Shown piece after piece: positions 3,589-19,689 of a stretch of 20,000 nucleotides of DNA (positions within the stretch are counted from its first letter, which is position 1; each line of letters opens with the position of its first letter). Under the pieces are notes generated by a model. That model was given only the letters and a program-made list of their open reading frames with translations, made no database searches and was not told the origin of the DNA. Origin of the DNA: an uncultured virus (IMG/VR IMGVR_UViG_3300030329_003010) (Duplodnaviria; Heunggongvirae; Uroviricota; Caudoviricetes); IMG/VR virus record IMGVR_UViG_3300030329_003010; one strand, given 5' to 3'. The position numbers were made by a program, and so were the translations under genes.

Positions 3589-3591
3589 TGG

Positions 3592-3819: not shown

Positions 3820-3821
3820 AT

Positions 3822-4332: not shown

Positions 4333-4334
4333 AA

Positions 4335-4883: not shown

Positions 4884-4885
4884 GT

Positions 4886-5062: not shown

Positions 5063-5083
5063 ATTTATTCCTCACATTCATTC

Positions 5084-5115
5084 CTTATAACTCTTTTCAT
5101 AGCGGGTTCGTTAGG
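5084..5115 (-). promoter_or_regulatory. Class A promoter
   Basis: CCTAACGAACCCGC-N10-GTTATAAG; ATG 5062 at +29. Confidence 0.85.
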
Positions 5116-5813: not shown

Positions 5814-5814
5814 T

Positions 5815-6021
5815 TTACTCCCCCTCCTCTTCTTCATTTTCCATAGCCACAATCAATTGTTTCATTTCAGAAATTCTCTTCATTCTACTCCAAACCATAT
5901 AAGCATTATCGGTCATCGTTTCTAATTCCTCAAGACTATACCTATTCAACAATCTGTTTGGCATCTTTTGTTTCATCCAATACATTAATTCGTCTATCCA
6001 TTTCCATTCAATCGGTTTCAT
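5815..6021 (-). CDS. Hypothetical protein, 68 aa
   Basis: GGAGG SD; coupled to both neighbours. Confidence 0.8.
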   Translation of the reverse strand: MKPIEWKWIDELMYWMKQKMPNRLLNRYSLEELETMTDNAYMVWSRMKRISEMKQLIVAMENEEEEGE

Positions 6022-6022
6022 A

Positions 6023-6463: not shown

Positions 6464-6464
6464 T

Positions 6465-6665
6465 TTATTCTTCCTCCTCAAAATATTGTAATATCTTTTT
6501 TATTGTATGGTCTGTGAACCTATCTTCCATATGGGCCTTATCAAGGGCGTAAATCAATCTCAATCTTTCGCTAGGTTGTTCTAACGCCTTAGTAAAAAGC
6601 GATGCTAGTGTATTATACCTATACGATTTCATTTTCATTGTGTTTGCATATTCTTCTAAATCCAT
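6465..6665 (-). CDS. Hypothetical protein, 66 aa, paralog A
   Basis: GGAGGTGA SD; 42/66 identical to 7124..7324. Confidence 0.85.
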   Translation of the reverse strand: MDLEEYANTMKMKSYRYNTLASLFTKALEQPSERLRLIYALDKAHMEDRFTDHTIKKILQYFEEEE

Positions 6666-6666
6666 A

Positions 6667-7122
6667 TTACTTCACCTCCAAGCCGACTATTTCATATCCA
6701 CTCCATTTAATACAAGCCCTTCTGAAATTATCATCTAAATCGTCAAGGATTGCATAACCATTTTCATCCCTTTCTATAACAAGTTCTTTGATTTCATCCC
6801 ACGATAAATCGCTTTCTTTCTGATGCTCTTCTGCTAATGAAACCCAAGGTGGGAATAAACAATTCCGGTCATTATAATTTTGAGCGCGGTCATCCCATGT
6901 ATTCCTTTCATAGTCCCATGTCCATTTGTAATTAGGGTCCGATTCTGAATAATGAATGATACCTTTCTTTTCTAAAGACGTAACTATCGCTCTCCATTGT
7001 TTAGGATTCATGCTACAATATGAAGCCGATACCCACATGACTATACCTGTACCGTCAGTCGTATGGTCTGAACAAACCATGTCCGTGATAAATTGAAATT
7101 CTAGTTTTGTTATTTGTTTCAT
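6667..7122 (-). CDS. Hypothetical protein, about 151 aa; N-terminus possibly winged-helix-like
   Basis: Start re-assigned to MKQITK; the 'WRAIVTSLEKKGII' pattern is HTH-like (weak). Confidence 0.75.
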   Translation of the reverse strand: MKQITKLEFQFITDMVCSDHTTDGTGIVMWVSASYCSMNPKQWRAIVTSLEKKGIIHYSESDPNYKWTWDYERNTWDDRAQNYNDRNCLFPPWVSLAEEHQKESDLSWDEIKELVIERDENGYAILDDLDDNFRRACIKWSGYEIVGLEVK

Positions 7123-7123
7123 T

Positions 7124-7324
7124 TTATTCATCCTCCTCATAATATTCTAATATCATTTTAATTGTGTGATTTGAAAACTCACCTTCCATATGAGCCTTAT
7201 CAAGAGTGCGAATTAATCTCAATCTTTCCCAAGATTGGTCTAACGCCTTGGTAAAAATCGCGGCCAATTTGTTATACCTAAAACTATTCATCTTTCTTCT
7301 ATGTGCGTGTTCATCTATATCCAT
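7124..7324 (-). CDS. Hypothetical protein, 66 aa, paralog B
   Basis: Start MDIDEH with GGAGGAGG SD; ungapped alignment to 6465..6665. Confidence 0.85.
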   Translation of the reverse strand: MDIDEHAHRRKMNSFRYNKLAAIFTKALDQSWERLRLIRTLDKAHMEGEFSNHTIKMILEYYEEDE

Positions 7325-7326
7325 AT

Positions 7327-7617
7327 TCATTCCTCCTCCAATAATCCCATTACAACCCAATTAGTTTCGTTTGAACCTTCAATCAAGACGTTACCATCTC
7401 CACCGTATTCGCACCATTTCCAATTAGGATAGTGCAATAACATTTTGTGAAAGCATTCTTTGATTGAATCATATTTTTTGATAGCCTCTCCTAATGTAGC
7501 AATCTCATATGATTTATCAGCAACACCTAAACTATAATCCCCATTATCATCTATATGACCATCTTCGGGGCCGTACCAAACAAGCACATTAAATTCTCTC
7601 ATTACATATTCACTCAT
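7327..7617 (-). CDS. Hypothetical protein, 96 aa
   Basis: GGTGA SD; ATGA overlap. Confidence 0.8.
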   Translation of the reverse strand: MSEYVMREFNVLVWYGPEDGHIDDNGDYSLGVADKSYEIATLGEAIKKYDSIKECFHKMLLHYPNWKWCEYGGDGNVLIEGSNETNWVVMGLLEEE

Positions 7618-7778
7618 TCTTCATCACCTTCTCTTGTTTCCGGCATACATTCGGGATGATACCAACGCTTCATTTTATCTCGCTCCGTTGCTCCAACTTT
7701 ATCAAAACTGAAATCCTCATAATGTGTAATCGGTTCCCCGCATTTCTTACAGGTGAATGGTGTCCTTCTTAGTCCCAT
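7614..7778 (-). CDS. Small CxxC...HxxC Zn-finger protein, 54 aa (not in ORF track)
   Basis: MGLRRTPFTCKKCGEPI...WYHPEC; ATG 29 nt from a TATA start; stop overlaps the next ATG. Confidence 0.85.
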   Translation of the reverse strand: MGLRRTPFTCKKCGEPITHYEDFSFDKVGATERDKMKRWYHPECMPETREGDEE

Positions 7779-7780
7779 AT

Positions 7781-8068
7781 TTACTCCTCTCCTTCTAGGT
7801 ATTTATAGTTTCCGATAGCGGGTTCGTAAGTTCGTATAATTTGATTCATTTTTCTTAGTATATCAAAAGCATGAATCAATCTATCCGTTGCATAATCCAT
7901 AGCATAATCGTACCCTTCTTCTTCTATCATTCCATCAAGGAAATTATATTGCTCAAGAACTGTTTCACAGACTTCCCAATTGTTAAGGAAATTCCATTCA
8001 CCAATCTCAATAGCCAATTCAATCCATCGTTGGTTTTTAGCCAATTCTTCAAAAATTCGCGTTTCCAT
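7781..8068 (-). CDS. Hypothetical protein, 95 aa
   Basis: TAATG coupling; its 3' end carries a promoter copy (reads TYEPAIGNYKY). Confidence 0.8.
   Translation of the reverse strand: METRIFEELAKNQRWIELAIEIGEWNFLNNWEVCETVLEQYNFLDGMIEEEGYDYAMDYATDRLIHAFDILRKMNQIIRTYEPAIGNYKYLEGEE
7800..7831 (-). promoter_or_regulatory. Class A promoter, intragenic
   Basis: ACTTACGAACCCGC-N10-TATAAATA; ATG 7778 at +29. Confidence 0.85.
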
Positions 8069-8487
8069 TAAGCATCATCTCCTAGATAAAATTCTTCTTC
8101 CAATCCAAATTCTTCTTTCAACATAAATTCTTCTCTCAACATAGTGATTACTCCATCAACAACATCGGGATATTTTTCACTATCGCGTTTGAAAGTCCAA
8201 TCAACAATCGGTACGACATCACACCAAGCATCTCCGGTATAATTAACGGCTACTGTTTGTTCATTTCCTGTTTCTTTGTTGAACAGTGTTACGTTACAAC
8301 CCTCAAAATTTTGGGCTTGATACGTCACTTCATCCAAATCAGAAAAGTCAATCGGTCTTACTTCTTCATATCCGTAACCCATCCAAGTTACCTCAAATCC
8401 TCGTTCTCTCATTTCCCAAAAGAAGGCGTATAAATTATCGCCAAACTTAAAGTTACAAATTCTTTCTTTCTTTATTCTTCCTCTCAT
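8068..8487 (-). CDS. Hypothetical acidic protein, 139 aa
   Basis: GGAG SD; ATGA overlap. Confidence 0.8.
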   Translation of the reverse strand: MRGRIKKERICNFKFGDNLYAFFWEMRERGFEVTWMGYGYEEVRPIDFSDLDEVTYQAQNFEGCNVTLFNKETGNEQTVAVNYTGDAWCDVVPIVDWTFKRDSEKYPDVVDGVITMLREEFMLKEEFGLEEEFYLGDDA

Positions 8488-8792
8488 TGTTTCACACTCC
8501 TTTTTTCTGCCCTATCGTAAGCATAATCCCATAAATCCTGTACTGAATCCTCTAAGATGTCTCCAGCATTATCATAATAGTCGGTCCAAACTAATCTTCC
8601 TCGACCCAATGATTTTCTGTATAAATCATCTTCTGAAAATCCAACAACAGGTTTGTAAGTTGGCTTCGCCCCAAGATGCGAACCAGTTTCAACTACACCA
8701 ATCCAAATAGTAGTATTACTATTTACCGATTGAGGTAAATCATCATTCGCTTCAAAAATTTCTTCTGCTAATTTGTCTATGTTATTCGTCAT
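8484..8792 (-). CDS. Hypothetical protein, 102 aa
   Basis: ATG 29 nt from a TATA start. Confidence 0.85.
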   Translation of the reverse strand: MTNNIDKLAEEIFEANDDLPQSVNSNTTIWIGVVETGSHLGAKPTYKPVVGFSEDDLYRKSLGRGRLVWTDYYDNAGDILEDSVQDLWDYAYDRAEKRSVKQ

Positions 8793-8813
8793 ATTTAGTC
8801 CTCTCCTTTCAAC

Positions 8814-8845
8814 TATTTATACCTTCCGATGGCGGGTCCGTAAGG
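8814..8845 (-). promoter_or_regulatory. Class A promoter
   Basis: CCTTACGGACCCGC-N10-TATAAATA; ATG 8792 at +29. Confidence 0.85.
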
Positions 8846-8846
8846 T

Positions 8847-9188
8847 TTACCAATCCTCCACGATTATACCGATTTGAATTTCTCTCCAATCCATTATACC
8901 ACCGGCTACATTCCTATCATAACCCCAAACAGGGATTACAGTGGTGTAGTCCTCAATATCCTCATCATCATCTAGGCCATAGGCTTCTCGGATTTCATCT
9001 TCATCCTCATATTCGGTATATCCACAACAAATTGCGATAGGGTCATATTCAATCTCCTCGCCTATATCGTCTTCTAATTGTTCAAAGTATTCAAACAAGG
9101 CTACTCTTCCCTCATAAGAGAAGTTATCCCCTCGGCCACAAAGCCTAAATCCGTCTATAAATGCGCTTCTAGTAACATGTTCTTTCAT
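8847..9188 (-). CDS. Conserved acidic viral protein (GR.DNFSYEG..ALF.Y.E.LE.D.GEEIE.D.IAICC family)
   Basis: Motif recognised from widespread phage hypothetical proteins; GAGGGTGA SD. Confidence 0.8.
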   Translation of the reverse strand: MKEHVTRSAFIDGFRLCGRGDNFSYEGRVALFEYFEQLEDDIGEEIEYDPIAICCGYTEYEDEDEIREAYGLDDDEDIEDYTTVIPVWGYDRNVAGGIMDWREIQIGIIVEDW

Positions 9189-9448
9189 TAATAATCACCC
9201 TCTTCATAGTATTTTTCAATATGTAATTCTAATTCGTGAATAGCATCGGGATGTATATTCGCTTCATCCTTAGTATAAAGAACCCCACCAATCATTACTG
9301 AATTTTCATGATTCATCGGGTCTTGAAAAACCTCTTCAACATCGGGAGCGTATTCAAGAACCCACTTTTCATATTTTCTTAATCTACGAACCTGCATCCT
9401 AAGATATGCAATATCCTTTACTAATGTTAAAATTTCCTTATTACTCAT
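9188..9448 (-). CDS. Hypothetical protein, 86 aa
   Basis: Start re-assigned to MSNKEI, with GGAGGT SD. Confidence 0.8.
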   Translation of the reverse strand: MSNKEILTLVKDIAYLRMQVRRLRKYEKWVLEYAPDVEEVFQDPMNHENSVMIGGVLYTKDEANIHPDAIHELELHIEKYYEEGDY

Positions 9449-9449
9449 A

Positions 9450-9539
9450 TTAGTTACCTCCATAAAATACCATTACAGGTGAATTGCGTTTAATAAATTC
9501 CGTTAGGAATGTTGGTTGTGTGTTGCTTTCTTTGCTCAT
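9450..9539 (-). CDS. Leaderless micro-protein, 29 aa (MSKESNTQPTFLTEFIKRNSPVMVFYGGN; not in ORF track)
   Basis: ATG exactly 29 nt from a TATA start; stop lies 1 nt before the next ATG. Confidence 0.7.
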   Translation of the reverse strand: MSKESNTQPTFLTEFIKRNSPVMVFYGGN

Positions 9540-9560
9540 ATATACCCATTATCGCCCTAC

Positions 9561-9592
9561 TATATAAACCTGTCGATGGCGGGTTTGTAAGG
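9561..9592 (-). promoter_or_regulatory. Class A promoter
   Basis: CCTTACAAACCCGC-N10-TTTATATA; ATG 9539 at +29. Confidence 0.85.
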
Positions 9593-9717
9593 TTTTTTCG
9601 GCCATATTGTTTTTGTAACCGTAACAAAAAATAAAAAAACTTACGACCCCCTTCTCGGTCCTCCACCGCTACCGGATGAGGGTGGGCCAAAAAAGGGGCC
9701 GTAAAAGGTGAATGTAA

Positions 9718-10011
9718 TTAGTATATAGCGAATCCAATAAAAGGAGTAATCCTTTCATCGGGAAAATTTGTAATATACCAAGCGCGAGTCATCTTGTCGA
9801 TTCTTTCTAGCAAATTCATATATCTTGAGCCTACACCGTATTTTATGCCTCGTATTTCTACCCAAAACATATGTCTATCATAACAAGCATGGACTATTTC
9901 ACTAAACTCATCTTTTGTTTTACATTTAGACAATGCTATTCTCACAGTTTTTTCCCAACCATCAAAAGTTCGGGAGTTGTAAATGTAATCTACGGGTTTC
10001 ATCTTACTCAT
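9718..10011 (-). CDS. Hypothetical protein, 97 aa
   Basis: Start re-assigned to ATG 10011, 29 nt from a TATA start. Confidence 0.8.
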   Translation of the reverse strand: MSKMKPVDYIYNSRTFDGWEKTVRIALSKCKTKDEFSEIVHACYDRHMFWVEIRGIKYGVGSRYMNLLERIDKMTRAWYITNFPDERITPFIGFAIY

Positions 10012-10032
10012 ATATACCAATTATCGCTATAC

Positions 10033-10064
10033 TATTTATAGTTTGTGATAGCGGGTTCGTAAGG
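10033..10064 (-). promoter_or_regulatory. Class A promoter
   Basis: CCTTACGAACCCGC-N10-TATAAATA; ATG 10011 at +29. Confidence 0.85.
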
Positions 10065-10539
10065 TGTTTTTGTAACCCTAACTTTTTATTTTACCAACTT
10101 AAATGTTTTTGTAACCCTAACTTTTTGTAGCGGTTTTTTAGGATTTTGTTTTTGTAACCGTAAGTTTCGGCTGGAGAAAGCGGGTTACAAAAACTGTTTT
10201 TGTAACCGGCGCGAGCGAGCAAAAAAAATAGCGCGAAAAAAAACGGGTTACAAAAACTTATAGAAGTCTGTAACAATGCGTTACAAAAACTCTCTTAGGG
10301 TTTCGCTCGGAGTGAGGGATTTACCGACAAACGAAGCGAGGATAGTTGTTCCCTCGTTGGGTATGTAAGAATGGGTTACAAAAACTCTCTTATGTTTTTT
10401 TGGTTTCCAATGCACGCTCTCGGAGCCAATCCCTCGATACGCTAGAGCAAGGTGCTAAACTCGCCCTTGCGGGAAATCCCGCCTTTTTGTAAAGCCCCTT
10501 TCGGAGCCATTGGAATGTGATAGTGGGTTACAAAAACTT

Positions 10540-10980
10540 TTACTTCTTTCTTCTTACGTGATATACTGATGTGACCCTATGCCTTCGGCCACTTGTCCAG
10601 TCATGGATTTGACCTGCTCGGACACACAAAACATGACTTCTAGTGAAAACAATATACACGCCACGTTTCGGGATAATTCCGGCCCGTTGCATGGCTCCGA
10701 TGGTCATAGACGAACCGAATTTTTTCCTCCAAAGAGTCGGACTCATTTTATGATTACCTTCAACCGGCTCGGTTACAAAATCTAAATCCTTCATCGCTCT
10801 TAGCATTCTTGATTCACAAAGACCTTTTCGATAACTTCTACCACGAAGGGCGCATTTACCATGAGCAGTTTCATAATTTACGCCGGTAGCAATCGCAACC
10901 GCTTTGACCGTACAATCATTCATTTCGCCCCATTTATCAGAGGCTTTAGACATCTTCTTGAACAATTTTGATTCACTCAT
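10540..10980 (-). CDS. Putative papain-fold (C39-like) cysteine peptidase/amidase
   Basis: NDC..KA.AIATG..Y...H, then Y.V....H...V..G...DW, which gives a Cys/His/Asp arrangement typical of this viral family. Confidence 0.6.
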   Translation of the reverse strand: MSESKLFKKMSKASDKWGEMNDCTVKAVAIATGVNYETAHGKCALRGRSYRKGLCESRMLRAMKDLDFVTEPVEGNHKMSPTLWRKKFGSSMTIGAMQRAGIIPKRGVYIVFTRSHVLCVRAGQIHDWTSGRRHRVTSVYHVRRKK

Positions 10981-11084
10981 ATGGTTCTACCCTCCAGACC
11001 ACAGTTTTTACAACGATAACGGAGACTGTATGGAATTCTTTCAAGATGAAGTCTTGAACAACAAAGATAGTTTTCTGCACTCAT
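10977..11084 (-). CDS. Zn-finger micro-protein, 35 aa (not in ORF track)
   Basis: MSAENYLCC...RCKNCG; ATG 29 nt from a TATA start; ATGA overlap with the next gene. Confidence 0.75.
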   Translation of the reverse strand: MSAENYLCCSRLHLERIPYSLRYRCKNCGLEGRTI

Positions 11085-11105
11085 ATTTACTCCTCTCCTT
11101 CTTTA

Positions 11106-11137
11106 CTTATAACACTTTCGATAGCGGGTTCGTAAGG
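11106..11137 (-). promoter_or_regulatory. Class A promoter
   Basis: CCTTACGAACCCGC-N10-GTTATAAG; ATG 11084 at +29. Confidence 0.85.
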
Positions 11138-11175
11138 TGAATTTCATCCATATAATCATAATCTAAACCTACCAT
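11107..11175 (-). CDS. Possible 22-aa peptide overlapping a promoter copy
   Basis: TAATG-coupled ATG with GGGGG SD; MVGLDYDYMDEIHLTNPLSKVL. Confidence 0.35.
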   Translation of the reverse strand: MVGLDYDYMDEIHLTNPLSKVL

Positions 11176-11270
11176 TATATCGCCCCCTTCAATCTCAAAT
11201 TTTTGCACTCTCTACATTTGCATTTTGCTGGATTTCCGGCACACATTTCATCTAAAATATCTAGTATCAT
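11175..11270 (-). CDS. Cys-rich micro-protein, 31 aa (not in ORF track)
   Basis: MILDILDEMCAGNPAKCKCRECKNLRLKGAI; coupled at both ends. Confidence 0.6.
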   Translation of the reverse strand: MILDILDEMCAGNPAKCKCRECKNLRLKGAI

Positions 11271-11462
11271 TCAATAATCATCTCCATTAAAGCCCAATTT
11301 TTCATGAATGAGATATAGAATATAATCTACTTGTTCAAATTCAAAAGGGTGAACACTAACTGTATCGTAATTAACGAATTTTAAGATTTCACAACATGCA
11401 TTTTCAAGTCTTGATATTTGCTCATCCGACATTTTTTCTAATTTTCTCTTTATTAAATTCAT
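11271..11462 (-). CDS. Hypothetical protein, 63 aa
   Basis: GGTGG SD; ATGA overlap. Confidence 0.75.
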   Translation of the reverse strand: MNLIKRKLEKMSDEQISRLENACCEILKFVNYDTVSVHPFEFEQVDYILYLIHEKLGFNGDDY

Positions 11463-11575
11463 GAAGCCACCACCTTTTTAGTTTTACAATGAGGGCAATT
11501 TTTATCTTTACAGGAATCGGGCCAAAGAGTGACCATCAAATCATGACCAATTTTCATTTCGGGTTGTTCGCTCAT
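11459..11575 (-). CDS. Cys-rich micro-protein, 38 aa (not in ORF track)
   Basis: MSEQPEM...CKDKNCPHCK; GGGGGTGA SD; TAATG and ATGA coupling. Confidence 0.7.
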   Translation of the reverse strand: MSEQPEMKIGHDLMVTLWPDSCKDKNCPHCKTKKVVAS

Positions 11576-11892
11576 TAAAATTTCACCCCCAACCATTGTT
11601 CAATAACATAGTCATCATAAAATTGGCCGGATTGGTCAAAATATTCCCAAGGTAAATTTACGTTATTTTCTGGCGGTATGAAATCAGTATAACCTCTATC
11701 TTTTAGGAAATTGACTAATAACCAATTTTCTAACTCTTCAAGATTCATTGAATCAAGATACAGTGAATAAAATTTGTACAATTGAAGTATTCTAGTTTTA
11801 TATTTCCCAAAATCGACCCATTCCTCTTTCGTGAAATCTTTTTCAAAGGATTTCGCATGAGCAATTTTGTATGGAGTTAATTTAGTAATCAT
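11575..11892 (-). CDS. Hypothetical protein, 105 aa
   Basis: GAGGAGGAGG SD. Confidence 0.8.
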   Translation of the reverse strand: MITKLTPYKIAHAKSFEKDFTKEEWVDFGKYKTRILQLYKFYSLYLDSMNLEELENWLLVNFLKDRGYTDFIPPENNVNLPWEYFDQSGQFYDDYVIEQWLGVKF

Positions 11893-11893
11893 T

Positions 11894-12127
11894 TCAATTC
11901 CTCCTCCTCAATAACGGCATCTCGTTCTCATATTCAACGGTTCTTATCATCATTTCAAGAATCATATCTTCATAAGTTCTAGTTTGAAGTACGATATTTC
12001 CATTTTCATCCCTCAATGTCCAATACAATCTTATTTTACCATCGTAAGGATTTTCTAATTCTTCTCGGCAAATTTCAAGACCCATACATTCATGTTTAAC
12101 AATTCGATTTTCATAATTACTGTACAT
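11894..12127 (-). CDS. Hypothetical protein, 77 aa
   Basis: Coupled to both neighbours. Confidence 0.8.
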   Translation of the reverse strand: MYSNYENRIVKHECMGLEICREELENPYDGKIRLYWTLRDENGNIVLQTRTYEDMILEMMIRTVEYENEMPLLRRRN

Positions 12128-12286
12128 TTAATAATCCGCTCCATTAAATCCAAGTTCTGCAATTTCATTCAAAACCCAATCCGATAGGGGTGGGTAAGAA
12201 TTCAATCGCTCCTTTCTTTCATTCAATATTCTTTCAATTTTAGCAATTACCTTGGGGCAACGCTTTGGTAGGCTTCTTCCGCTCAT
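12128..12286 (-). CDS. Leaderless hypothetical protein, 52 aa, first gene of the minus block (not in ORF track)
   Basis: MSGRSLPKRCPKVIAK...LGFNGADY; ATG 29 nt from a TATA start; stop abuts the next ATG. Confidence 0.8.
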   Translation of the reverse strand: MSGRSLPKRCPKVIAKIERILNERKERLNSYPPLSDWVLNEIAELGFNGADY

Positions 12287-12307
12287 AATCAACAATTAGC
12301 AACCTAG

Positions 12308-12339
12308 TATTTATATATATCGGTAGCGGGTTTGTAAGG
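12308..12339 (-). promoter_or_regulatory. Class A promoter
   Basis: CCTTACAAACCCGC-N10-TATAAATA; ATG 12286 at +29. Confidence 0.85.
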
Positions 12340-12720
12340 TCATACTTATGAAGTTTTTGTAACCCGATAGTTCGGGGGAGGATTGAATCTTTTCTACTAT
12401 AAAGTATGACGCGCTCACGCGAGTATAGCGTTTTTGATTTTGTAACCCATTTTTGTAACCTGTTTGAGAGTGATAATATATTTCAAGTTTTTGTAACCGG
12501 ATATTTTCTGAACTGTTTTTGTAACCCCGAAAAGACCTACTGCCTCATTCACACTTGCTTTACTCTTTGCACTCGGTTTACTTTTTACACTAACTTTGTT
12601 TTTGTAACCGATGGTTGGGGGTCGATTTTGCTCTCTCTGTGGGGTTACAAAAACACTTTTTGGGTTACAAAAACACGTTTTGGGTTACAAAGACAGGTTA
12701 CAAAAACACGCTTTTGTAAC

Positions 12721-12747
12721 CCGAAAATCGTTAGACTGGTCGGCATT
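12721..12747 (+). repeat. 27-bp direct repeat, copy 2
   Basis: CCGAAAATCGTTAGACTGGTCGGCATT. Confidence 0.8.
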
Positions 12748-12813
12748 TTTTAATCGTCAAAAAATAACTACGATTTGCCCCTACTTTATCGAGATTTTAG
12801 CACTTTTTTGAAT

Positions 12814-12851
12814 TTCACTTTCAGTTTTTTCTGAAAGTGAACCTGAAAGTG
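12814..12851. repeat. Perfect 11-bp inverted repeat plus an extra half-site
   Basis: TTCACTTTCAG-TTTTTT-CTGAAAGTGAA, followed by CTGAAAGTG. Confidence 0.8.
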
Positions 12852-13200
12852 TTTACGTCTAGCGTTTTTTAAATTTTTGTAACTGTTTTTGTAACCGGTA
12901 AAATGTTATTTTTTTGTTTTTGTAACTTGTTTTTGTAACCGACCCTTACTATATATTAATTTAGCAAACATTATATACTATGAATGGTTTTTGTAACCGG
13001 ACCCAAATCGCCAGCATATCGGAGCCGTTTTCTTGAAGCATCCACTTACAAGTATATAAACAATTGGTTTTCGCCCCCCCACCATTGTTTTTGTAACCCA
13101 CAATGTTTTTGTAACCGCGCTGGTGTAAAAAATGCACTAAATTACTAAAAAAAACCTAAAAGGTTACAAAAACAGAAAAAACCTACAAATGCACAAATCA

Positions 13201-13236
13201 ACGAACATACTATAAGGGAAGGGGGTATCTCGTAAC
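13201..13236 (+). promoter_or_regulatory. BRE/TATA-like leaderless promoter
   Basis: ACGAACA-TACTATAAG about 29 nt before ATG 13237. Confidence 0.6.
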
Positions 13237-13704
13237 ATGAGCAAAGAATACGAGCGAGAAAATAAGCCGAAGTGGTGCAAGCCATGTAAGAAGACCAAGA
13301 GGGGCATCATTGTTGATGATTGCTTCATGTGTGTTGATTGTGCAACCGAAGAGGGTTATACAGTCATCAAGAAAAGCAACGCTAACAAGACCTCATTCAC
13401 ATCAAAAACAGGTAAGAAGTCAAGAGCAAAGCAGTTGAATGATATAGACGCTATGCACCGAGCAAATCAAGCCCGAAGGGTCAAGGCTACCCAAAGAGCA
13501 AAGATGGCCGCAGAGAGGCGTAAAATCGCACTTATGGAGGGTATGGTAGGCACTGATGGACTCGCTAACCATTTCCGTATGAATGGAGTGTGTAAGTGCT
13601 GCAAGGGTCGCCTTCCTGTTTCTCAAGCCGCATATGTTCACCGTGACGCTTTTGTAACCCCGAACAAAGTTCCAACCGTACTATGTAGGGGGTGCGTTGA
13701 ATGA
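13237..13704 (+). CDS. Basic Zn-binding protein, 155 aa; C-terminus resembles a degenerate HNH
   Basis: N-terminal CKPC/CVDC; C-terminal CKCC...H...N....LCRGC; leaderless promoter upstream. Confidence 0.75.
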   Translation: MSKEYERENKPKWCKPCKKTKRGIIVDDCFMCVDCATEEGYTVIKKSNANKTSFTSKTGKKSRAKQLNDIDAMHRANQARRVKATQRAKMAAERRKIALMEGMVGTDGLANHFRMNGVCKCCKGRLPVSQAAYVHRDAFVTPNKVPTVLCRGCVE

Positions 13705-13943
13705 AAACTCCATTAATTACCCAAGAGGTTTTTGTAACCGAAAAAATTGCTTGGAGAGATTTTGAAAACAAAGACCTTGGTAAAATTGTCGTTAAACAAA
13801 TCACCTACGGGCCGCCCGTAGTTATTGGTTATGTGGTCGAAGATGATGAAGGAATGGAGAAGAAGGTAGTTCACTACAAGAACGCCAAGAAGTCGATATA
13901 CAAAGAAGATTCGCCGTCATATTTGAATGAGGTATTCGGATGA
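13701..13943 (+). CDS. Hypothetical protein, 80 aa
   Basis: ATGA overlap; GGGGGTG SD. Confidence 0.8.
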   Translation: MKTPLITQEVFVTEKIAWRDFENKDLGKIVVKQITYGPPVVIGYVVEDDEGMEKKVVHYKNAKKSIYKEDSPSYLNEVFG

Positions 13944-13968
13944 GTTTTTGTAACCGGAGGTAATAAGT

Positions 13969-14085
13969 ATGTGTAGAATTTGTAAACAATGGGTGAAAGG
14001 TTATTCTTATGAAAATGGCTCCTTTAGAGGTCAACCTAAATTTTGGGATGGTATCTGTACAAATTGCGGTAGAGATGAAAGTTGA
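13969..14085 (+). CDS. Zn-finger micro-protein, 38 aa (not in ORF track)
   Basis: MCRICKQW...ICTNCGRDES; GGAGGT SD. Confidence 0.75.
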   Translation: MCRICKQWVKGYSYENGSFRGQPKFWDGICTNCGRDES

Positions 14086-14320
14086 TTTTGTAACCGTTTT
14101 TGTAACCTATCTCTGTACGTTTTTGTAACTCTGTATCTCTCTGTATCTCTGTACGTTTTTGTAACCGTTTTTGTAACCTGTGCAATTTTGTTTTTGTAAC
14201 CGAAGGCGCGTAGCGCGGACCCCGATACCACTTGAGATGCAGGTATATAATCATATGTTTTTGTAACCCATAAGGGTGCTTTTCCGAAACATATATATGC
14301 TGTGGTCCCCTCCCATTAAA

Positions 14321-14427
14321 TAGAGGAGGAGGAAGCGAGAACAGACCACTTGCGGAAGGTCGAAATTGAAAGGAGGATAGCACCGAGTAAAGGAGAGCCG
14401 TAAGAAGAACAGTCATAAGCAGTTTTT
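14321..14427 (+). ncRNA. Candidate purine-rich small RNA, about 100 nt
   Basis: Promoter CCGAAACA-TATATATG at 14284-14299 matches those of neighbouring genes, but no ATG follows; ends at a T-tract motif copy. Confidence 0.4.
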
Positions 14428-14730
14428 GTAACCTAGTCCCACACCCCCCCGTAACCAATAAGACCTAACTACTTGCTTTTGTAACCGGCTGCTATACCAA
14501 CCACGGCGAAGTCACTGGGCTACGGGATAAGGGGGGGCGTGAAACTTTTTTTGTAACCCAGTTTTTGTAACTGGGTTATTTTTTTTGTAACCTAGAATGT
14601 TTTTGTAACCCACACTCTCTGTGTGTTTTTGTAACCTAATTTCTCTCTGTGTGTTTTTGTAACCCACACTCTCTGTTTGTTTTTGTAACCCAAGACGCGA
14701 AGCGTAAAAAATGTTTTTGTAACCCATTAT

Positions 14731-14806
14731 GTACAAAAACAAAATTGTTTTTGTAACCTATAACTACAATCCAAACATATATAAGGGGACACCCTATCCG
14801 ACAAAT
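14731..14806 (+). promoter_or_regulatory. Class B promoter (inverted motif pair, TATA, leaderless ATG)
   Basis: GTACAAAAACAAAATTGTTTTTGTAACC-N19-TATATAAG; ATG at +29. Confidence 0.8.
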
Positions 14807-15286
14807 ATGGGTACTAGATGTAACATACGAATAACAGATGAACGAGATGAATTATGGTTTTACCGTCATTATGACGGTTATCCCGATATGATTATACCGG
14901 ATTTGGCCCCGTTAATGGAAGCCTTGCAGAATGGTCATGTTCGCGATAATGTTGGCCAATTTAGCGGTTGGTTAATAGTAATCGGAAATAAGGATATGTG
15001 GAGCAATAGAAGCCTCCCAACAGGTAGAATGCGCGAGGGTGGTTATTCAGCATGGAAATGCGGAAACTATGAGCCAACAACAGGCAGACACGGAGACATA
15101 GACTTCCTTTATCATATCGACCTAGTTCAAAAAACTATGACGGTTTACAACGGATGGACCGGAGAAGAAGAAGATTTGGCTAAATTTTTTCCCCATGAAG
15201 TTATAGAGTGTTATCCCTATATCTCCTATCTTGATTTTGTAACCAACGAAAATTCTTATGGATATGAAGGTTGTAATTGGTCGTGA
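14807..15286 (+). CDS. Conserved viral protein with the MGTR...YRHYDGYP motif, 159 aa
   Basis: Start re-assigned to 29 nt after TATATAAG; the M.TR..I and Y.H.DGYP motifs mark a widespread phage family of unknown function. Confidence 0.85.
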   Translation: MGTRCNIRITDERDELWFYRHYDGYPDMIIPDLAPLMEALQNGHVRDNVGQFSGWLIVIGNKDMWSNRSLPTGRMREGGYSAWKCGNYEPTTGRHGDIDFLYHIDLVQKTMTVYNGWTGEEEDLAKFFPHEVIECYPYISYLDFVTNENSYGYEGCNWS

Positions 15287-15372
15287 TTTTGTAACCGTTT
15301 TTGTAACTCTCTCTCTTTAGTTTTTGTAACCAAAACTTTTTTTGTTTTTGTAACCGAATATTTCCTAGCACT

Positions 15373-15447
15373 GGCTACAAAAACAATTGTTTTTGTAACC
15401 CCATAACTTAACGAAACATATATAAGCGGAGGCTACATCTCACAAAT
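15373..15447 (+). promoter_or_regulatory. Class B promoter
   Basis: GGCTACAAAAACAATTGTTTTTGTAACC-N18-TATATAAG; ATG at +29. Confidence 0.8.
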
Positions 15448-15639
15448 ATGGAGCATTACCGTAACCATATGGTATCGAACAGGAGATACCACAAAGAACG
15501 ACGTTTGAACGCCAAGAAGCAGAAGAAAGCACTAGAGAAGGCCAAAGAGTCCACTCAAGTAGCCATGAAATTCGCATTCGCTACACGAAGCATATGCCTA
15601 AAATACGGCTACCGCTTAGAAAAGGAGGTTGAAGTTTAA
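15448..15639 (+). CDS. Small basic protein, 63 aa
   Basis: ATG 29 nt from a TATA start. Confidence 0.8.
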   Translation: MEHYRNHMVSNRRYHKERRLNAKKQKKALEKAKESTQVAMKFAFATRSICLKYGYRLEKEVEV

Positions 15640-15836
15640 TGTGCGAAAAATGTAAAAACGACGATGGATTGAAAGAGCATTTGAGGATTAAAGATGAGTC
15701 ACTAACTAACGGCTTGATTTATTGGTTCTGTCCCGATTGTGGTAGAATAGACAAACCATATCATGATAGATTCAATAAGTTAGGGTTCGGAGTATGGATA
15801 TGGGGTTCGCCCGATTGGATGATTCATGATGAATGA
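15639..15836 (+). CDS. Zn-finger protein, 65 aa
   Basis: CEKC...CPDCG; GGAGGT SD; TAATG coupling. Confidence 0.8.
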   Translation: MCEKCKNDDGLKEHLRIKDESLTNGLIYWFCPDCGRIDKPYHDRFNKLGFGVWIWGSPDWMIHDE

Positions 15837-15897
15837 TTTTGTAACCCTTTCTCTGTATGTTTTTGTAACCGAGGGATAAATATGTTTTTCATTTTTG

Positions 15898-15956
15898 TTT
15901 TTGTAACCGGACTACTCATTCCAAACCATTATATACCCGCACCACTTCGTAGGGGT
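15898..15956 (+). promoter_or_regulatory. Class B promoter
   Basis: TTTTTGTAACC-N19-ATTATATA; ATG at +29. Confidence 0.8.
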
Positions 15957-16130
15957 ATGAGCGAACAACACGACGCACACGTTAGAACATGGAAGCAATT
16001 TTGGAATGAATACTTCAATAATATGATGGATGAAGAAATATCAGAAGAAGAAGAAAGGAAAATGATGGAAGCAGACCTAGCATTAGACCGCCACCTACAA
16101 AGAATAGAAGATTCTTACGGAGAGTATTGA
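15957..16130 (+). CDS. Small acidic protein, 57 aa
   Basis: Start re-assigned to MSEQHD, 29 nt from a TATA start. Confidence 0.8.
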   Translation: MSEQHDAHVRTWKQFWNEYFNNMMDEEISEEEERKMMEADLALDRHLQRIEDSYGEY

Positions 16131-16131
16131 A

Positions 16132-16323
16132 ATGAGCAAACCATTGTTTTTTGTAACCCCCAACGCACCTAAAGGTCGGGCCTGTATTTGGACAGACAAA
16201 GCCCAACGCACTAGAGACGCACAAATCAAGGCACTAATCCCATTGGCCCATAATGGCAACGTAGAGGCCATGCAAGCCCTTCGACTTGTCCTTTGGACTA
16301 ATGTAGTAGCGGGTGCAGTTTAA
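16132..16323 (+). CDS. Hypothetical protein, 63 aa
   Basis: GGAG SD; coupled to the upstream gene. Confidence 0.75.
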   Translation: MSKPLFFVTPNAPKGRACIWTDKAQRTRDAQIKALIPLAHNGNVEAMQALRLVLWTNVVAGAV

Positions 16324-16324
16324 G

Positions 16325-16361
16325 TTTTTGTAACCAGAGGATAAATCACGACTATTATATA
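16325..16361 (+). promoter_or_regulatory. Class B promoter
   Basis: TTTTTGTAACC-N18-ATTATATA; the downstream gene has a short leader. Confidence 0.7.
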
Positions 16362-16398
16362 CTGCCTACTACTAGGGTCAATCAAGAAGGGTGCGAAT

Positions 16399-16674
16399 AT
16401 GGATATAGAAGTAAAATATAACGGAAAGAGTTGGGAGCCGAGAGTAACAAAATACAAGGTAGTTATGGGTAACTTTCATGGCCGAATGGATAAACACAAC
16501 GGCCAGTTCGTTCATCTTGATTTGTTTTTGAGTCTTGGGGAACAAGATTTGCAGGTTTATTATGGAAATATAGTCGCTAATAACAACAAAGAATTGAAGG
16601 AAATAATCGAGGAAAAGATAAGCGAGTTCAAGCCTTTTGTAACTAAGTTATATGAGTTTATGATGAACTTGTGA
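16399..16674 (+). CDS. Hypothetical protein, 91 aa
   Basis: Own TATA box at 16354; AGGGTG SD. Confidence 0.8.
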   Translation: MDIEVKYNGKSWEPRVTKYKVVMGNFHGRMDKHNGQFVHLDLFLSLGEQDLQVYYGNIVANNNKELKEIIEEKISEFKPFVTKLYEFMMNL

Positions 16675-16882
16675 TTTTGTAACCGGCGTTTTTGTAACCC
16701 TCTTTGTAACCGGTGTTTTTGTAACTCGTTTTCTTTTTTTTGTTTTTGTAACCCATGTTTTGTTAATCCTTGTGGGTACAAAAACATTTTTGTTTTTGTA
16801 ACCCTAGTTATTTTTTTGCTCGCGCAACGGTTACAAAAGCGTTGTTGGGTTACAAAAACAATATTATTGGGTAATCGTTGGG

Positions 16883-16911
16883 TTTATATACGAACACCCT
16901 ATCCGACAAAC
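16883..16911 (+). promoter_or_regulatory. TATA promoter, leaderless
   Basis: TTTATATA with ATG at +29; shares CACCCTATCCGACAAA with the 14807 promoter. Confidence 0.8.
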
Positions 16912-17097
16912 ATGAACGTACGACTATCGAACGACAAAGGAATGACTGTCCATTACATCAAGGCCCGAAGGTTGCTTATCAGAACCAATAACGGCGTACG
17001 AGATGTGACGACATTAGACGACCAACAAGCCCACGCTTTTGAAACCTTAGTGCTTCAAAACCGCTTCAAGGGCTGCACTATTGAGGTATTAGCATGA
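16912..17097 (+). CDS. Hypothetical protein, 61 aa
   Basis: Start re-assigned to MNVRLS, 29 nt after TTTATATA. Confidence 0.8.
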   Translation: MNVRLSNDKGMTVHYIKARRLLIRTNNGVRDVTTLDDQQAHAFETLVLQNRFKGCTIEVLA

Positions 17098-17522
17098 ACG
17101 AAAGAGCATACCACACGAATGAAATTATTGACTTGACCATTGAAAACGGCGGAGGCACTTGGCTAAGAGTAGGCATGGGTGTTTTTGTAACCCCGAATTC
17201 TAATGATAGGTATGTCTTAGCCGCTTATGATGGCGACGGCTTAGTTATCCCTAATTTCATGAGTCAACCAATTGATTTTGTAACCCAACTTGTTGATTGG
17301 TTTGCATCACAACAAAACAGCCGAATATACACAAACAGTGGTTTTTGTAACCAAGTTGTAAACGCTCATTTTGGAACTTGGGTTCGTGGTGATGATTTAG
17401 TGCTTGATATTGTGGAACTAGAAAATGATTTTGTAACCGCGATGGAAAAAGCGAGAGAGCGAAATCAAAATGCAATCTTTGACCTAGTAGAGATGAAAGA
17501 GGTTTTTGTAACCGAGGAGTAA
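17094..17522 (+). CDS. Conserved viral protein with G.W......LD...A...A...NQ.AIFDL motif, 142 aa
   Basis: GAGGT SD; ATGA overlap; contains five TTTTGTAACC copies. Confidence 0.8.
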   Translation: MNERAYHTNEIIDLTIENGGGTWLRVGMGVFVTPNSNDRYVLAAYDGDGLVIPNFMSQPIDFVTQLVDWFASQQNSRIYTNSGFCNQVVNAHFGTWVRGDDLVLDIVELENDFVTAMEKARERNQNAIFDLVEMKEVFVTEE

Positions 17523-17624
17523 ATGCTTTTGTAACCGAGGTTTTTGTAACCTCTCTCTCTTTGTTTTTGTAACCAAGAGATTTGTGTTTTTGTAACCCGT
17601 TTGTTTTTGTAACTTAACGTCGTG

Positions 17625-17700
17625 GCCACAAAAACAAAATTGTTTTTGTAACCTAAACGATAATCGCTACCTTTATATACGCACACCCTATCCCGTAAAC
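17625..17700 (+). promoter_or_regulatory. Class B promoter
   Basis: GGCCACAAAAACAAAATTGTTTTTGTAACC-N18-TTTATATA; ATG at +29. Confidence 0.8.
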
Positions 17701-17829
17701 ATGAACTACACAGATAACGAATACGGTTTCCATTGTGGAAACCCTGTATGTACACGAAATTGTTTTGCTTGTGCGAACCGCTTGACCATAATATATGGCC
17801 AATGGGTCGAAGTACCGGAGTTGATTTAA
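17701..17829 (+). CDS. Cys-rich micro-protein, 42 aa (not in ORF track)
   Basis: MNYTDNEYGFHCGNPVCTRNCFAC...; ATG 29 nt after TTTATATA. Confidence 0.75.
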   Translation: MNYTDNEYGFHCGNPVCTRNCFACANRLTIIYGQWVEVPELI

Positions 17830-17831
17830 AC

Positions 17832-18032
17832 ATGAACAACAGACAACGATTGATAAATGAATTAAAGAAAGCAGACGGTAAAGCGTTTGATACCTTAAGA
17901 AAAGAATTCAAAGAGGCGAATAATGAACAAATGGTCGGCTTTATGGATTGGATGGAGCGCACTCAAGGCAAAGGTTACGCGGTGGCCATACTTGAAGAAC
18001 TTGGGTATTTTGTAACGGAGGCGATTGAATGA
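17832..18032 (+). CDS. Hypothetical protein, 66 aa
   Basis: Start re-assigned to MNNRQR, with GGAG SD. Confidence 0.8.
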   Translation: MNNRQRLINELKKADGKAFDTLRKEFKEANNEQMVGFMDWMERTQGKGYAVAILEELGYFVTEAIE

Positions 18033-18184
18033 AACACTCAAGGTTAATGGCTACATTGTTACATGAGTTTTTTGTAACCCTTGAAGATGATAACCCTCTC
18101 AAAGATTATATCACATTTCATGTTGAAGTATTTGGTATTGAATCGGCAGTTCTATTTTTACGAGAACGAGGATATGATGTTTGA
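18029..18184 (+). CDS. Hypothetical protein, 51 aa (MKHSRLMATLLHEFFVTL...; not in ORF track)
   Basis: GGAGG SD; ATGA overlap; stop followed directly by the repeat motif. Confidence 0.7.
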   Translation: MKHSRLMATLLHEFFVTLEDDNPLKDYITFHVEVFGIESAVLFLRERGYDV

Positions 18185-18569
18185 GTTTTTGTAACCGCTT
18201 TTGTAACCGGAGAGCGGAACAATCTCTCTTTGTTTTTGTAACCCAAGGGGGTTCCCTTGTTTTTGTAACTCTCTTTTCCCCCTTCTTTTTTTCTCTCTCT
18301 CTTTGTTTTTGTAACCGAGCGGTCCCTTTGTTTTTGTAACCCTCTCTTTTTCTCTCTCTCTCTTAATGTGTATGTGTTTTTGTAACCCATGTTTTTGTAA
18401 CCCAAGTTACAAAACAAAATTAATAACTCAACCTTGAAAAATTAATAATGTGTTTTTGTAACCCAATTTCAAAAAATCAAGGGGTTGAATAATTGGGTCC
18501 GATGGGTCCGAAAAATGGCCCCGAAACGTGAAAAAAAGGCCGTTTTTGTAACCAAGTTGATATAGAGTC

Positions 18570-18588: not shown

Positions 18589-19689
18589 ATGTCTACGACA
18601 TTGAACACACAGAAGAACGGGGAACAGGCGAGCAGCCTATTGATTAAATTGCTCGCTTGGTTTATCGGAACTTTGCCCAAATCGGGTCAAGTACTGATAT
18701 TGAACGCACTAGGTAAGGACACAAACAAGAACACCGACACCTATGATGAGTTGATGAGGGTTCTATACCTTGAACTCAAGAATAATACGAAGTGGATTAT
18801 GAAAAAGGACATCGGGAATACTGAAACATGGTTTCATCAATTCCCCAATGCCTTCAATTATCTACCATTCGTTGAAGTCACTCGTCGTCATATGGTCCGT
18901 GTTTCGGGCTATGTTACAGGTCGTTCAAAGCAGGTCGAAACCGAGACACGCAGAGACAAAAACGGGGCAGAACTTCAAGACGGTTTGCGCCACTTTTGCG
19001 CTAATTGTGGATGGCTTTCATACATGGGATTGAATGCCGATGGGGTCCGCTATTGTTGCGGTTCCGTTGCTGAATTAATGACCCGTGACGTTGCCGTATC
19101 AGACCGATATGAGCCGGTTATTCGCATCCCTTGGCTTGTTGGTGCTACTTTGATTGATTGGAGTGTAAACCTAACAACATTGGGCGGCGACCCTGTGGGA
19201 GCAGTTATGCGAATTATGGACACCGTGAGGGTATGGAATCATGATGATATGATGACTTCAACACCTAAAAGACACCCGAATCATGGACCGGATAACGCAC
19301 AACCCCACAAGGACAAAAACAAGCGCATCAAGGCCTTATTATGCCGAATTCCTGTGTTGAATGATATGGGTCAAACTGTGCCTATGTGGGTCAATTTACC
19401 GGCTATCAAGGGCGATATATTCCACCCAGTAGCACGAAGTTATCATGGATTAATTGATTCACAATTGAAGCGAATCGTTCAATATAACGAGATGCTAATG
19501 AGTCGCAGTCATTTGATTTCGATACTATCCGAGCAGACAAAAAGCCTCAAGGTTTCAAAGTTGGTTGATATTCCACAAGAAGTTCAAAACCACCTAAACC
19601 GTTACCCCAAGGCCCGAAACATCGACTTGAATGCAGTCGCTAGAGTTGAAGAAAAGAGGAGGAACAGACTGGTTGAAACCATATCTTGA
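18589..19689 (+). CDS. Hypothetical protein, 366 aa, with an internal Zn-ribbon (CANC...CC)
   Basis: Longest ORF in the window; palindrome just upstream and strong hairpins just downstream. Confidence 0.85.
   Translation: MSTTLNTQKNGEQASSLLIKLLAWFIGTLPKSGQVLILNALGKDTNKNTDTYDELMRVLYLELKNNTKWIMKKDIGNTETWFHQFPNAFNYLPFVEVTRRHMVRVSGYVTGRSKQVETETRRDKNGAELQDGLRHFCANCGWLSYMGLNADGVRYCCGSVAELMTRDVAVSDRYEPVIRIPWLVGATLIDWSVNLTTLGGDPVGAVMRIMDTVRVWNHDDMMTSTPKRHPNHGPDNAQPHKDKNKRIKALLCRIPVLNDMGQTVPMWVNLPAIKGDIFHPVARSYHGLIDSQLKRIVQYNEMLMSRSHLISILSEQTKSLKVSKLVDIPQEVQNHLNRYPKARNIDLNAVARVEEKRRNRLVETIS

Follow-up and report, generated by a model that had tools for sequence, protein, structure and literature searches.

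A short oriented word at the promoters, stop codons and cassette joints of a small-gene region in an uncultured tailed virus

What function could lead one short word to be written some ninety times into a single region of a viral genome? The question is raised by a stretch of 20,000 nucleotides (nt) from an uncultured member of the Caudoviricetes (IMG/VR record IMGVR_UViG_3300030329_003010), called the window here over its full length, in which the word TTTTGTAAC crowds into the region of small genes; gene calls are our own and were made from open reading frames (ORFs). The answer that we prefer, at roughly even chances, is that this field is an operator- or stoperator-like element of one class of promoters, which insulates short gene cassettes from one another and at whose copies the cassettes are shuffled by recombination. 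What can be read directly from the DNA is that the site is conserved, that it stands at fixed distances from TATA-like boxes, that its orientation is biased, that it abuts stop codons and that cassettes are gained and lost at its copies.

The window holds 95 exact matches to TTTTGTAAC, 80 on the + strand and 15 on the − strand; 200 shuffles that preserve dinucleotides gave a mean of 0.53 matches and a maximum of 4, and none attained 95. The matches are confined: 93 lie in 9611-18552, two lie leftward (990 and 6384) and none lies to the right of 18552. A preliminary description of this DNA, made from the sequence alone, had estimated about 80 forward and 14 reverse copies in some 9 kilobases (kb), which the counts bear out. 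Its figure of about three copies in the first 9.6 kb was right as to the restriction and wrong as to the number, which is two, and the absence of copies beyond the field stands. So does its placing of the right-hand end at the promoter of a gene for 366 amino acids: the last copy (18544-18552) ends 5 nt ahead of that gene's TATA-like box (about 18559-18566). The field falls into two parts:

12355..18552, + strand: main field, where TTTTGTAAC stands 75 times forward and 7 times reverse among small-ORF cassettes of the + strand
9611..10780, unstranded: left sub-field within a block of minus-strand genes, 13 copies (5 on the + and 8 on the − strand, the copy at 9611 included)

The extended logo of the word, tGTTTTTGTAACC, is asymmetric. 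Of the 95 copies, 86 have G at −2 and 83 have C after the core; position −1 is T in 77 and A in 10. The distances between neighbours of the same orientation are irregular, ranging from 12 to 58 with peaks at 12 (5 pairs), 23 (6 pairs) and 26-28 (7 pairs), and the arrays that Tandem Repeats Finder reports are all short and local (2-3.6 copies, periods of 12-26). It follows that the field is not a CRISPR (clustered regularly interspaced short palindromic repeats) array and not a single tandem repeat either, a point that the preliminary description had already made. The linkers between copies are poor in G (13.6% against 21.2% in the field) and 58% pyrimidine, as measured on 183 linkers from five genomes. 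Tracts of (CT)n or CT-rich sequence on the sense strand also stand between copies, in the window at 14129-14150 and 18270-18375 and in the arrays of a relative (G009), and they recur in all lineages; they might form a DNA structure, act as pyrimidine-rich terminators or offer a second site for binding.

An artefact of assembly, which the preliminary description had named as a risk, is excluded, because Logan contigs from four runs of two studies reproduce the field independently. One of 5505 bases spans 12945-18449 and another of 21980 bases spans 13120-19000, with 2 differences each. In all four runs, contigs break in the control region between the two gene blocks (11.4-13.1 kb; 11413-12125 and 12841-12974). 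At 12841-12974, two alleles that are 9 differences and 4 gaps apart coexist in three of the runs, and the control region is therefore polymorphic in the population.

Pattern scans found four lineages with the same core. The closest relative found (G001, 33,145 bases), about 90% identical to the window in DNA, carries the word 98 times: 95 times in 4500-13971 and twice in the following 19 kb. In G007 (65,128 bases, rated 99% complete, 47.5% G+C), 83 of 89 copies fall within kb 42-49 of 65, so that the field is internal to a genome that has no terminal repeat; in G008 (42,746 bases), 76 of 81 fall in kb 26-33. The enrichment in related viruses that the preliminary description had looked to is thus present in three genomes with analogous fields. 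G009, which forms a third lineage with G008, has 64 copies, whereas G002 and G010 have about 16-18, with flanks ACTTTTGTAACCTTTT, in a 900-base non-coding gap between divergent modules. G003 is approximately the same virus as G007 (their tblastn values are identical), and L024 and G004 are fragments of the G007 family. The proteins shared by the window and G007 are mostly 33-55% identical, so both the restriction of the field and the word itself have been conserved over a deep divergence. The terminase gene lies 1-2 kb from the field in relatives.

Outside this group, a megablast search of the window against 50,697 phage records gave no match, and a search of the literature for the motif as a string of letters brought up nothing but primers from papers on other subjects. 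In unrelated genomes of bacteria and archaea, the 9-base word in three copies turns up at 120 loci at the least, mostly as single arrays; the word alone is therefore not diagnostic, and it is the architecture of the field that defines the feature. Two loci were judged unrelated. A 172-kb phage (G006; L127, G006:86000-100000) has about 31 copies, which belong to a different word, stop-GTTACAAAAAACGCATAG, in antisense. In that phage a stop codon is followed by GTTACAAAAAACGCATAG and often by a hairpin of 5-6 base pairs (bp), roughly once per gene, which looks like a promoter or terminator signal of its own. At the start of L069, the 9-mer overlaps the −35-like TTGTAA hexamers of bacterial-type promoters. 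A further genome (G005), which may or may not be related, has inverted triplets of the 9-mer around AT-rich DNA between a primase gene and baseplate genes.

How strongly the word is constrained can be seen by comparing the window with its closest relative. In the aligned non-coding blocks, 450 motif positions are identical, none is substituted and 9 are gapped (one whole copy is missing), as against 2047 identical, 80 substituted and 48 gapped at other non-coding positions (80/2127 substituted). On this comparison the motif is under purifying selection. The core is also kept between lineages that have G+C contents of 38 to 47.5% and no more than 24-45% identity in the proteins they share. The constraint does not fall on the run of T, which is T5 in 56 of 75 copies in the window but T4 in 67 of 68 copies in G008 and in 55 of 55 in G009, while TTTTGTAAC, including its GTAAC, is invariant. 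Moreover, runs of five or more T outside the motif show no strand bias in the window (19 against 19). A plain oligo-T terminator is therefore disfavoured as the conserved function.

The position of the copies relative to promoters is equally regular. The first gene of every transcription unit has a TATA-like box (TTTATATA, ATATATAA or TTCATATAG) at a fixed distance upstream of its ATG: the box ends about 21 nt before a leaderless ATG, and in 23 of the 45 box-ORF pairs of five records the first base of the box lies 28-30 nt from the ATG, which puts its centre about 26 nt ahead. Archaeal TATA promoters that give leaderless messages have this geometry. Operon-internal genes, for their part, bear GGAGG. 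A reading as bacterial sigma-70 promoters was rejected, since TTGTAA and TATATA are 18-23 nt apart and a distance of 28-30 nt from box to ATG misfits a −10 element. The elements concerned are:

14778..14785, + strand: class-R cassette promoter, TATA-like box; the leaderless ATG at 14807 follows 21 nt later
about 13209, 15419, 15928, 16883, 17672 and 18559, + strand: equivalent class-R TATA-like boxes
14732..14758, unstranded: promoter-proximal inverted pair, a degenerate reverse ACAAAAAC, 6 nt and GTTTTTGTAACC, 20 nt upstream of the TATA-like box
15377-15400 and 17626-17653: similar inverted pairs
2621..12338, − strand: second promoter class (L), box CTTACRAACCCGC, 9 copies

The motif itself ends 14-21 nt upstream of the box and outside it, and it occurs in arrays. 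At five promoters of the window, a forward copy ends 18-21 nt ahead of the box, and at three of these (14732, 15377 and 17626) it has a reverse partner, in the form ACAAAAAC-N4-6-GTTTTTGTAACC with the reverse half degenerate. In G009, five of eight perfect 20-bp palindromes, GTTACAAAA-NN-TTTTGTAAC, are followed after 14-15 nt by a box resembling TTCATATAG and about 21 nt on by an ATG; the same arrangement, with its spacing, holds for all three perfect palindromes of G008.

The motif serves the cassettes of the + strand, and a different box, CTTACRAACCCGC, serves nine leftward promoters. Its 9 copies (at most one mismatch; 0.03 expected) all lie on the minus strand directly upstream of leftward TATA-like boxes, and several are followed by a shared leader, GGAGAGGAGTAAATATG. 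This box probably marks a second temporal class of promoters. The leftward promoters that border the field (9590, 10063 and 12338) are abutted by rightward-pointing copies of the motif (9611, 10068 and 12355).

Downstream of the promoters, the copies follow the direction of transcription. Across the fields of five records, 332 copies are forward and 40 reverse. Of the 68 + strand ORFs that have 40 codons or more in these records, 31 have their next forward copy beginning between −8 and +3 of the stop codon. Thirteen of these 31 are flush with it, as TGA|TTTTGTAAC, and in four the copy supplies its own TAA as the stop. In the left sub-field, one copy begins 4 nt past the stop of the minus-strand gene 10540-10980. 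The polarity extends into genes: all 15 copies inside called genes of the window are in sense, 14 of them read as x-F-V-T and one as F-C-N. This bias is not forced by coding, because the antisense strand of the word is free of stops in every frame.

The copies also mark the joints at which the gene content of these viruses changes. Between the window and its closest relative, the field, at 6 kb and about 90% identity, shows at least six events that affect whole cassettes, of which two concern cassettes that the relative lacks:

16326..16698, + strand: cassette A, a promoter and ORF 16399-16674, with direct copies at 16326 and 16690
17504..18016 (between the copies, about 17518-18007), + strand: cassette B, an array and ORFs 17701-17829 and 17832-18032

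Cassette A (16335-16698 between the copies) is absent from the relative, which has a single copy at the joint. Cassette B is flanked by in-frame copies at 17504 and 18008, and the relative has instead one copy (12709) and a fused reading frame. A further cassette, E, is specific to the relative and again lies between motif copies, and two replacements, C and D, share a common promoter at the left and an end of TGA plus motif at the right. For A, B and E, the crossover can be placed within 9-15 bp. Since gains, losses and replacements break exactly at copies, the repeats are the joints of cassette shuffling. In homologues of a 155-amino-acid protein encoded at the start of the + block, FVT tripeptides occur at differing sites where subgroups switch from one type of sequence to another, positions that fit joints within genes. 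In the leftward block, indels have their breakpoints at the promoter and leader module shared within that block, and recombination at any shared regulatory repeat is therefore the simplest reading. The shuffling is probably a by-product of recombination between shared regulatory sequences.

A mechanism that would join these observations can be put as follows. GTTTTTGTAACC, with its invariant core TTTTGTAAC, would be the asymmetric site of one DNA-binding protein, viral or host, that governs one promoter class. A cassette opens with one copy of the site or two in an inverted pair, followed by 14-21 bp of spacer, the TATA box, about 21 nt, a leaderless ATG and one to three small ORFs; it closes with same-sense copies that run from the stop codon, with pyrimidine-rich linkers between them, up to the next promoter. 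The promoter-proximal pair may act as an operator or as an upstream element, and the sense copies may act as polar barriers in the manner of the stoperators of phage L5, shielding neighbouring cassettes from read-through. We infer the binding of a protein, the sign of the regulation and the block to elongation from the pattern of the sites. None of the archaeal-looking promoters, the co-orientation with abutment of stop codons or the cassette indels at copies figured in the preliminary description; its proposal of many sites for one protein over small early or accessory genes fits both the constraint and the TATA geometry, although its binder was not found.

In what kind of virus does this occur? 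G001 and G007 encode TerL, portal, tail tube, an SbcD-like exonuclease, PolB and an RFC-like clamp loader, together with a PD-(D/E)XK nuclease and an ERCC4+HhH nuclease. The clamp loader of G007 matches archaeal RFC small subunits at 3e-30 (PDB), as against 2e-10 for T4 gp44 and 4e-8 for bacterial gamma/tau, and its ERCC4 nuclease matches Hef of P. furiosus. PolB is closest to that of haloarchaeal tailed viruses (23-26% identity), while TerL is at most 27% identical to terminases of T4-like cyanophages; no cultured relative was found in the TerL and PolB comparisons. Because of the TATA and leaderless geometry and of the archaeal-type replication genes of G007, the host is probably an archaeon. 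The lineage is one of marine tailed viruses of roughly 62-69 kb. The virus resembles the marine archaeal tailed viruses termed magroviruses, to which it may belong. These have genomes of 65-100 kb and an archaeal-type replication apparatus that includes MCM, primase and clamp (PMC5434244); MCM, primase and clamp were not detected in G007. The magrovirus paper mentions no repeats, promoters or motifs (PMC5434244). In G007, a minus-strand ORF of 2488 amino acids beside the tail genes (L361 10367-17833), with no Pfam match, could encode a tape measure or another giant virion protein.

An important question is which protein would bind the word. Of three proteins considered, none stands out:

13237..13704, + strand: first gene of the + block, 155 amino acids, conserved in G001, G003/G007 and G004
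18589..19689, + strand: 366-amino-acid ORFan gene that borders the field in every relative
3088-3588, − strand: DenV-like protein (PF03013, phrog_624), 57-68% identical in G002, G007 and G008

A model of the 155-amino-acid protein (predicted local distance difference test (pLDDT) 82) has two zinc-ribbon modules joined by a basic helix of 45 residues; it has no PDB match at E ≤0.001, and a role as regulator is possible. The 366-amino-acid protein has four invariant cysteines (C137, C140, C156 and C157) and is restricted to the lineage, with 10 close homologues and 9 representatives in 1.8 billion proteins. Its identity with the homologues in G003 and L024 is 24-25%, BLASTP against the positionally equivalent 426-amino-acid protein of G002 gives E 0.16, its AlphaFold2 (AF2) model has a pLDDT of 47, and comparison with the Atlas gave no match. 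The DenV-like protein was set aside as a binder, since it belongs to a huge, conserved, enzyme-like family (937 matches) found on many types of contig, and it is most likely an enzyme. Many of the 937 homologues lie on marine contigs of 60-69 kb, which makes the protein a useful marker of this group of viruses. The two winged helix-turn-helix proteins that the preliminary description had suggested as binders were not found, the nearest thing being a weak Pfam match to HTH_SB (E 0.003) in a 96-amino-acid ORF (2291-2581). A conserved host factor would fit as well, given that the word stays invariant in viruses that have diverged. Known sites that look like the word, each perhaps no more than a lead, are half sites of the OmpR/PhoB/WalR type, the ECF sigma −35 element TGTAAC, the Ss-LrpB box, SurR GTTn3AAC and the cyanobacterial Pho box.

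Overall, the copies occupy at least eight intergenic spaces and the interiors of genes, with up to 12 in an array. Some of the regions concerned deserve description:

12296..13236, unstranded: non-coding control region between the divergent blocks, 940 bases, 18 motif copies
10066-10535, unstranded: non-coding island in the minus-strand block, 470 bases, 9 copies in both orientations
17094..17522, + strand: 142-amino-acid ORF (phrog_17808, E 2.6e-8) with five in-frame motif copies

The control region also holds the leftward class-L promoter (12326-12338) and repeats of CTGAAAGTG (12816-12851). The latter are two to three direct repeats and one inverted repeat of CTGAAAGTG(AA), kept in G007 (L363, about 6140-6235) and, as CACTTTCA..TGAAAGT, in G002 (L125 7650-7670); they could be an origin element or a second operator. 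The island contains a perfect motif palindrome (10181-10207) and G+C-rich inverted repeats, is 96% conserved in the closest relative and has no Rfam match; Rfam and transfer RNA scans of the whole window likewise found none. In the 142-amino-acid ORF, the copies are 67-93 nt apart and are translated four times as FVT and once as FCN, and the homologue in the closest relative likewise carries in-frame copies; these may be scars of recombination or, alternatively, intragenic sites under selection. The ORFs of the cassettes are small, one to three per cassette, and many of their products have CxxC pairs.

Several points weigh against an operator- and stoperator-like function. Searches with Pfam and PHROGs found no regulator among the 35 ORFs of the window or among 62 of G007 (those of at least 70 amino acids, leaving out three that cross locus ends and the ORFs of the field), and no binding protein was identified among the proteins examined. 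The sole protein detectably shared by all motif-bearing lineages is the DenV-like one. Neither did the same searches of the window and G007 find an integrase, repressor or recombinase family or, above threshold, a helix-turn-helix family, no direct comparison with gp71 having been made, and silencing of a prophage in the manner of L5 is therefore unlikely. We know of no operator or stoperator system that attains the 12 copies per spacer seen here. The case for an archaeal host comes solely from promoter geometry and the affinities of replication genes, and when 401 genomes from a single archaeal phylum were searched at the DNA level, only short, chance-level matches in host genes and no host link emerged. 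Finally, the lineages are fewer than the records, because G003 is nearly the same virus as G007.

Other functions must be considered for a word with these properties. The joints raise the idea of a dedicated system of site-specific recombination with the motif as its core site, an integron-like cassette platform of an archaeal virus, perhaps with the 366-amino-acid zinc-ribbon protein. Cassettes A, B and E lie between direct copies that are reduced to a single copy in the relative, with crossovers confined to 9-15 bp; at least six cassette events have accumulated per 6 kb at about 90% identity; ORFs end flush with the motif; an invariant gene to which no function is assigned, that for 366 amino acids, borders the array in every relative; and FVT tripeptides stand at the apparent mosaic joints of the 155-amino-acid homologues. 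However, searches of the window and of G007 detected no recombinase family, the 366-amino-acid protein has neither detectable relatives of known function nor a confident model, and in the motif-less leftward block indels break at a promoter module of its own, which points to general recombination. Such a platform would also leave the 12-copy arrays (with linkers of 3-20 bp) and the fixed geometry of operator and TATA box unexplained, as well as the approximately 16 copies in the cassette-free control region of G002. We regard it as unlikely, and as unlikely its fuller form, in which archaeal viruses would have their own counterpart of the integron: accessory genes with leaderless promoters of their own would enter and leave at TTTTGTAAC as the crossover core, through an unrecognised recombinase (the 366-amino-acid protein being the candidate), and the sites would double as regulatory barriers. 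The element may instead act in RNA, with UUUUGUAAC in the 3' parts of cassette messages being bound or cut by an RNA-binding protein or a nuclease, which would set the life-time of the message or its processing. An orientation tied to the coding strand (332:40, and 15/15 for coding copies), a first copy directly after the stop codon and pyrimidine-rich linkers on the sense strand are all in keeping with this; perfect palindromes that precede the TATA box, and so lie outside the transcript of their cassette, are not, nor are the copies at 9611, 10068 and 12355, which run against local transcription directly upstream of leftward promoters. No RNA family was found in the window with Rfam, and we consider this explanation improbable.

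The remaining possibilities ask less of the word or place its function elsewhere. Oligo-T runs terminate archaeal transcription, and copies at stop codons, in sense, with T5 in 56 of 75 cases in the window and with pyrimidine-rich linkers, could be intrinsic terminators after each cassette; this is very unlikely, since G008 (67/68) and G009 (55/55) have only T4 and yet GTAAC is invariant, outside runs of at least five T have no strand bias (19 against 19, window), 15 copies lie within ORFs and the palindromic pairs at promoters would be left unexplained. It is also quite unlikely that the motif is a selfish or slippage-born mini-repeat that has spread without function through non-coding DNA. 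The local arrays with periods of 12-28 bp do look like duplications and the turnover of cassettes is high, but such a repeat would hardly have 0 of 450 positions substituted against 80 of 2127 in its flanks, keep the same core in lineages at 24-45% protein identity or stand at fixed distances from TATA boxes. Least probable of all is a platform for replication origin, partition or packaging (resembling an iteron, an origin recognition box (ORB), parS or pac) or a mark of the DNA that enters first. Many sites for one factor do lie in one region, beside a large control region and, in relatives, 1-2 kb from the terminase gene, and in G005 the inverted triplets flank AT-rich DNA. Nevertheless, the copies are spread over at least eight spacers and several ORFs in 6-9 kb and are tied to promoters and stop codons, the field is internal in the 99%-complete G007, which has no terminal repeat, and no initiator or ParB-like gene was found in the searches of the window and G007. 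The parS- or iteron-like platform of the preliminary description is unlikely on the same grounds, the copies being distributed over intergenic spaces and genes and not gathered at one AT-rich site.

One word of 10-12 bases used about 90 times offers an oligonucleotide bait for the presumed regulator and a marker of the accessory-gene region in metagenomic contigs. Little is known about the timing and insulation of genes in viruses of uncultured marine archaea, and the fixed spacing from TATA box to ATG is a hint, from sequence only, of an archaeal host for an abundant lineage of 62-69-kb viruses. The joints at the word show the turnover of a variable gene set that probably holds genes for host takeover or anti-defence. 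Were a dedicated enzyme to make these joints, this would be a new kind of gene-capture system.

How does this arrangement compare with known systems? As in integron arrays of attC and attI, small cassettes that point one way are bounded by a repeated site, with a conserved gene at the end of the array. However, attC sites are imperfect palindromes of 57-141 bp, whereas the sites here have 10-12 bp, searches of the window and G007 turned up no tyrosine recombinase, and the cassettes have their own promoters. The PeSL (promoter-early stem-loop) cassettes in the hyperplastic regions of T4-type phages consist of bacterial sigma-70 promoters and a hairpin, one per gene. There too, repeated regulatory modules flank small ORFan early genes and act as joints for shuffling, but PeSL cassettes are not known to have oriented arrays of a short word such as those found here.

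The closest parallels are in two other viruses. The halovirus HF2 has promoter-carrying intergenic repeats of two classes, class I of 58 bp in 7 copies and class II of 29 bp in 2 copies (PMC8707807). The two classes are tied to different regions of the HF2 genome, and class-specific factors are presumed to read them (PMC8707807). Like HF2, the virus studied here, a tailed virus with a probably archaeal host, has one class of repeat per block of genes, the motif and CTTACRAACCCGC. In HF2, the TATA box lies inside the repeat and there is one repeat per promoter, whereas here a unit of 10-12 bp lies outside the box, is present about ten times per cassette and also follows stop codons. The second parallel is with the cluster A mycobacteriophages, which are temperate and have a monomeric repressor (gp71 in L5) with a helix-turn-helix and a stoperator domain. 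Repressors of the L5 type recognise more than 20 asymmetric 13-mers, which stand at promoters or in the short gaps between genes and whose orientation matters for repression (PMC9283540). Like the L5 stoperators, which measure 13 bp, the sites of the field are short (10-12 bp), asymmetric and numerous, and they lie at promoters and between genes; the field also shares with them an orientation that follows the direction of transcription (PMC9283540). It differs from them in having about 90 sites instead of 20-30, in arrays of up to 12 and in one region of 6-9 kb instead of genome-wide, and also in its inverted promoter pairs, its probably archaeal host and the lack of any integrase or recognisable repressor in the searches of the window and G007. 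What goes beyond both L5 and HF2, besides the copy number, the arrays and the confinement to one cassette region, is the presence of sites that are flush with stop codons and that lie at the joints of recombination.

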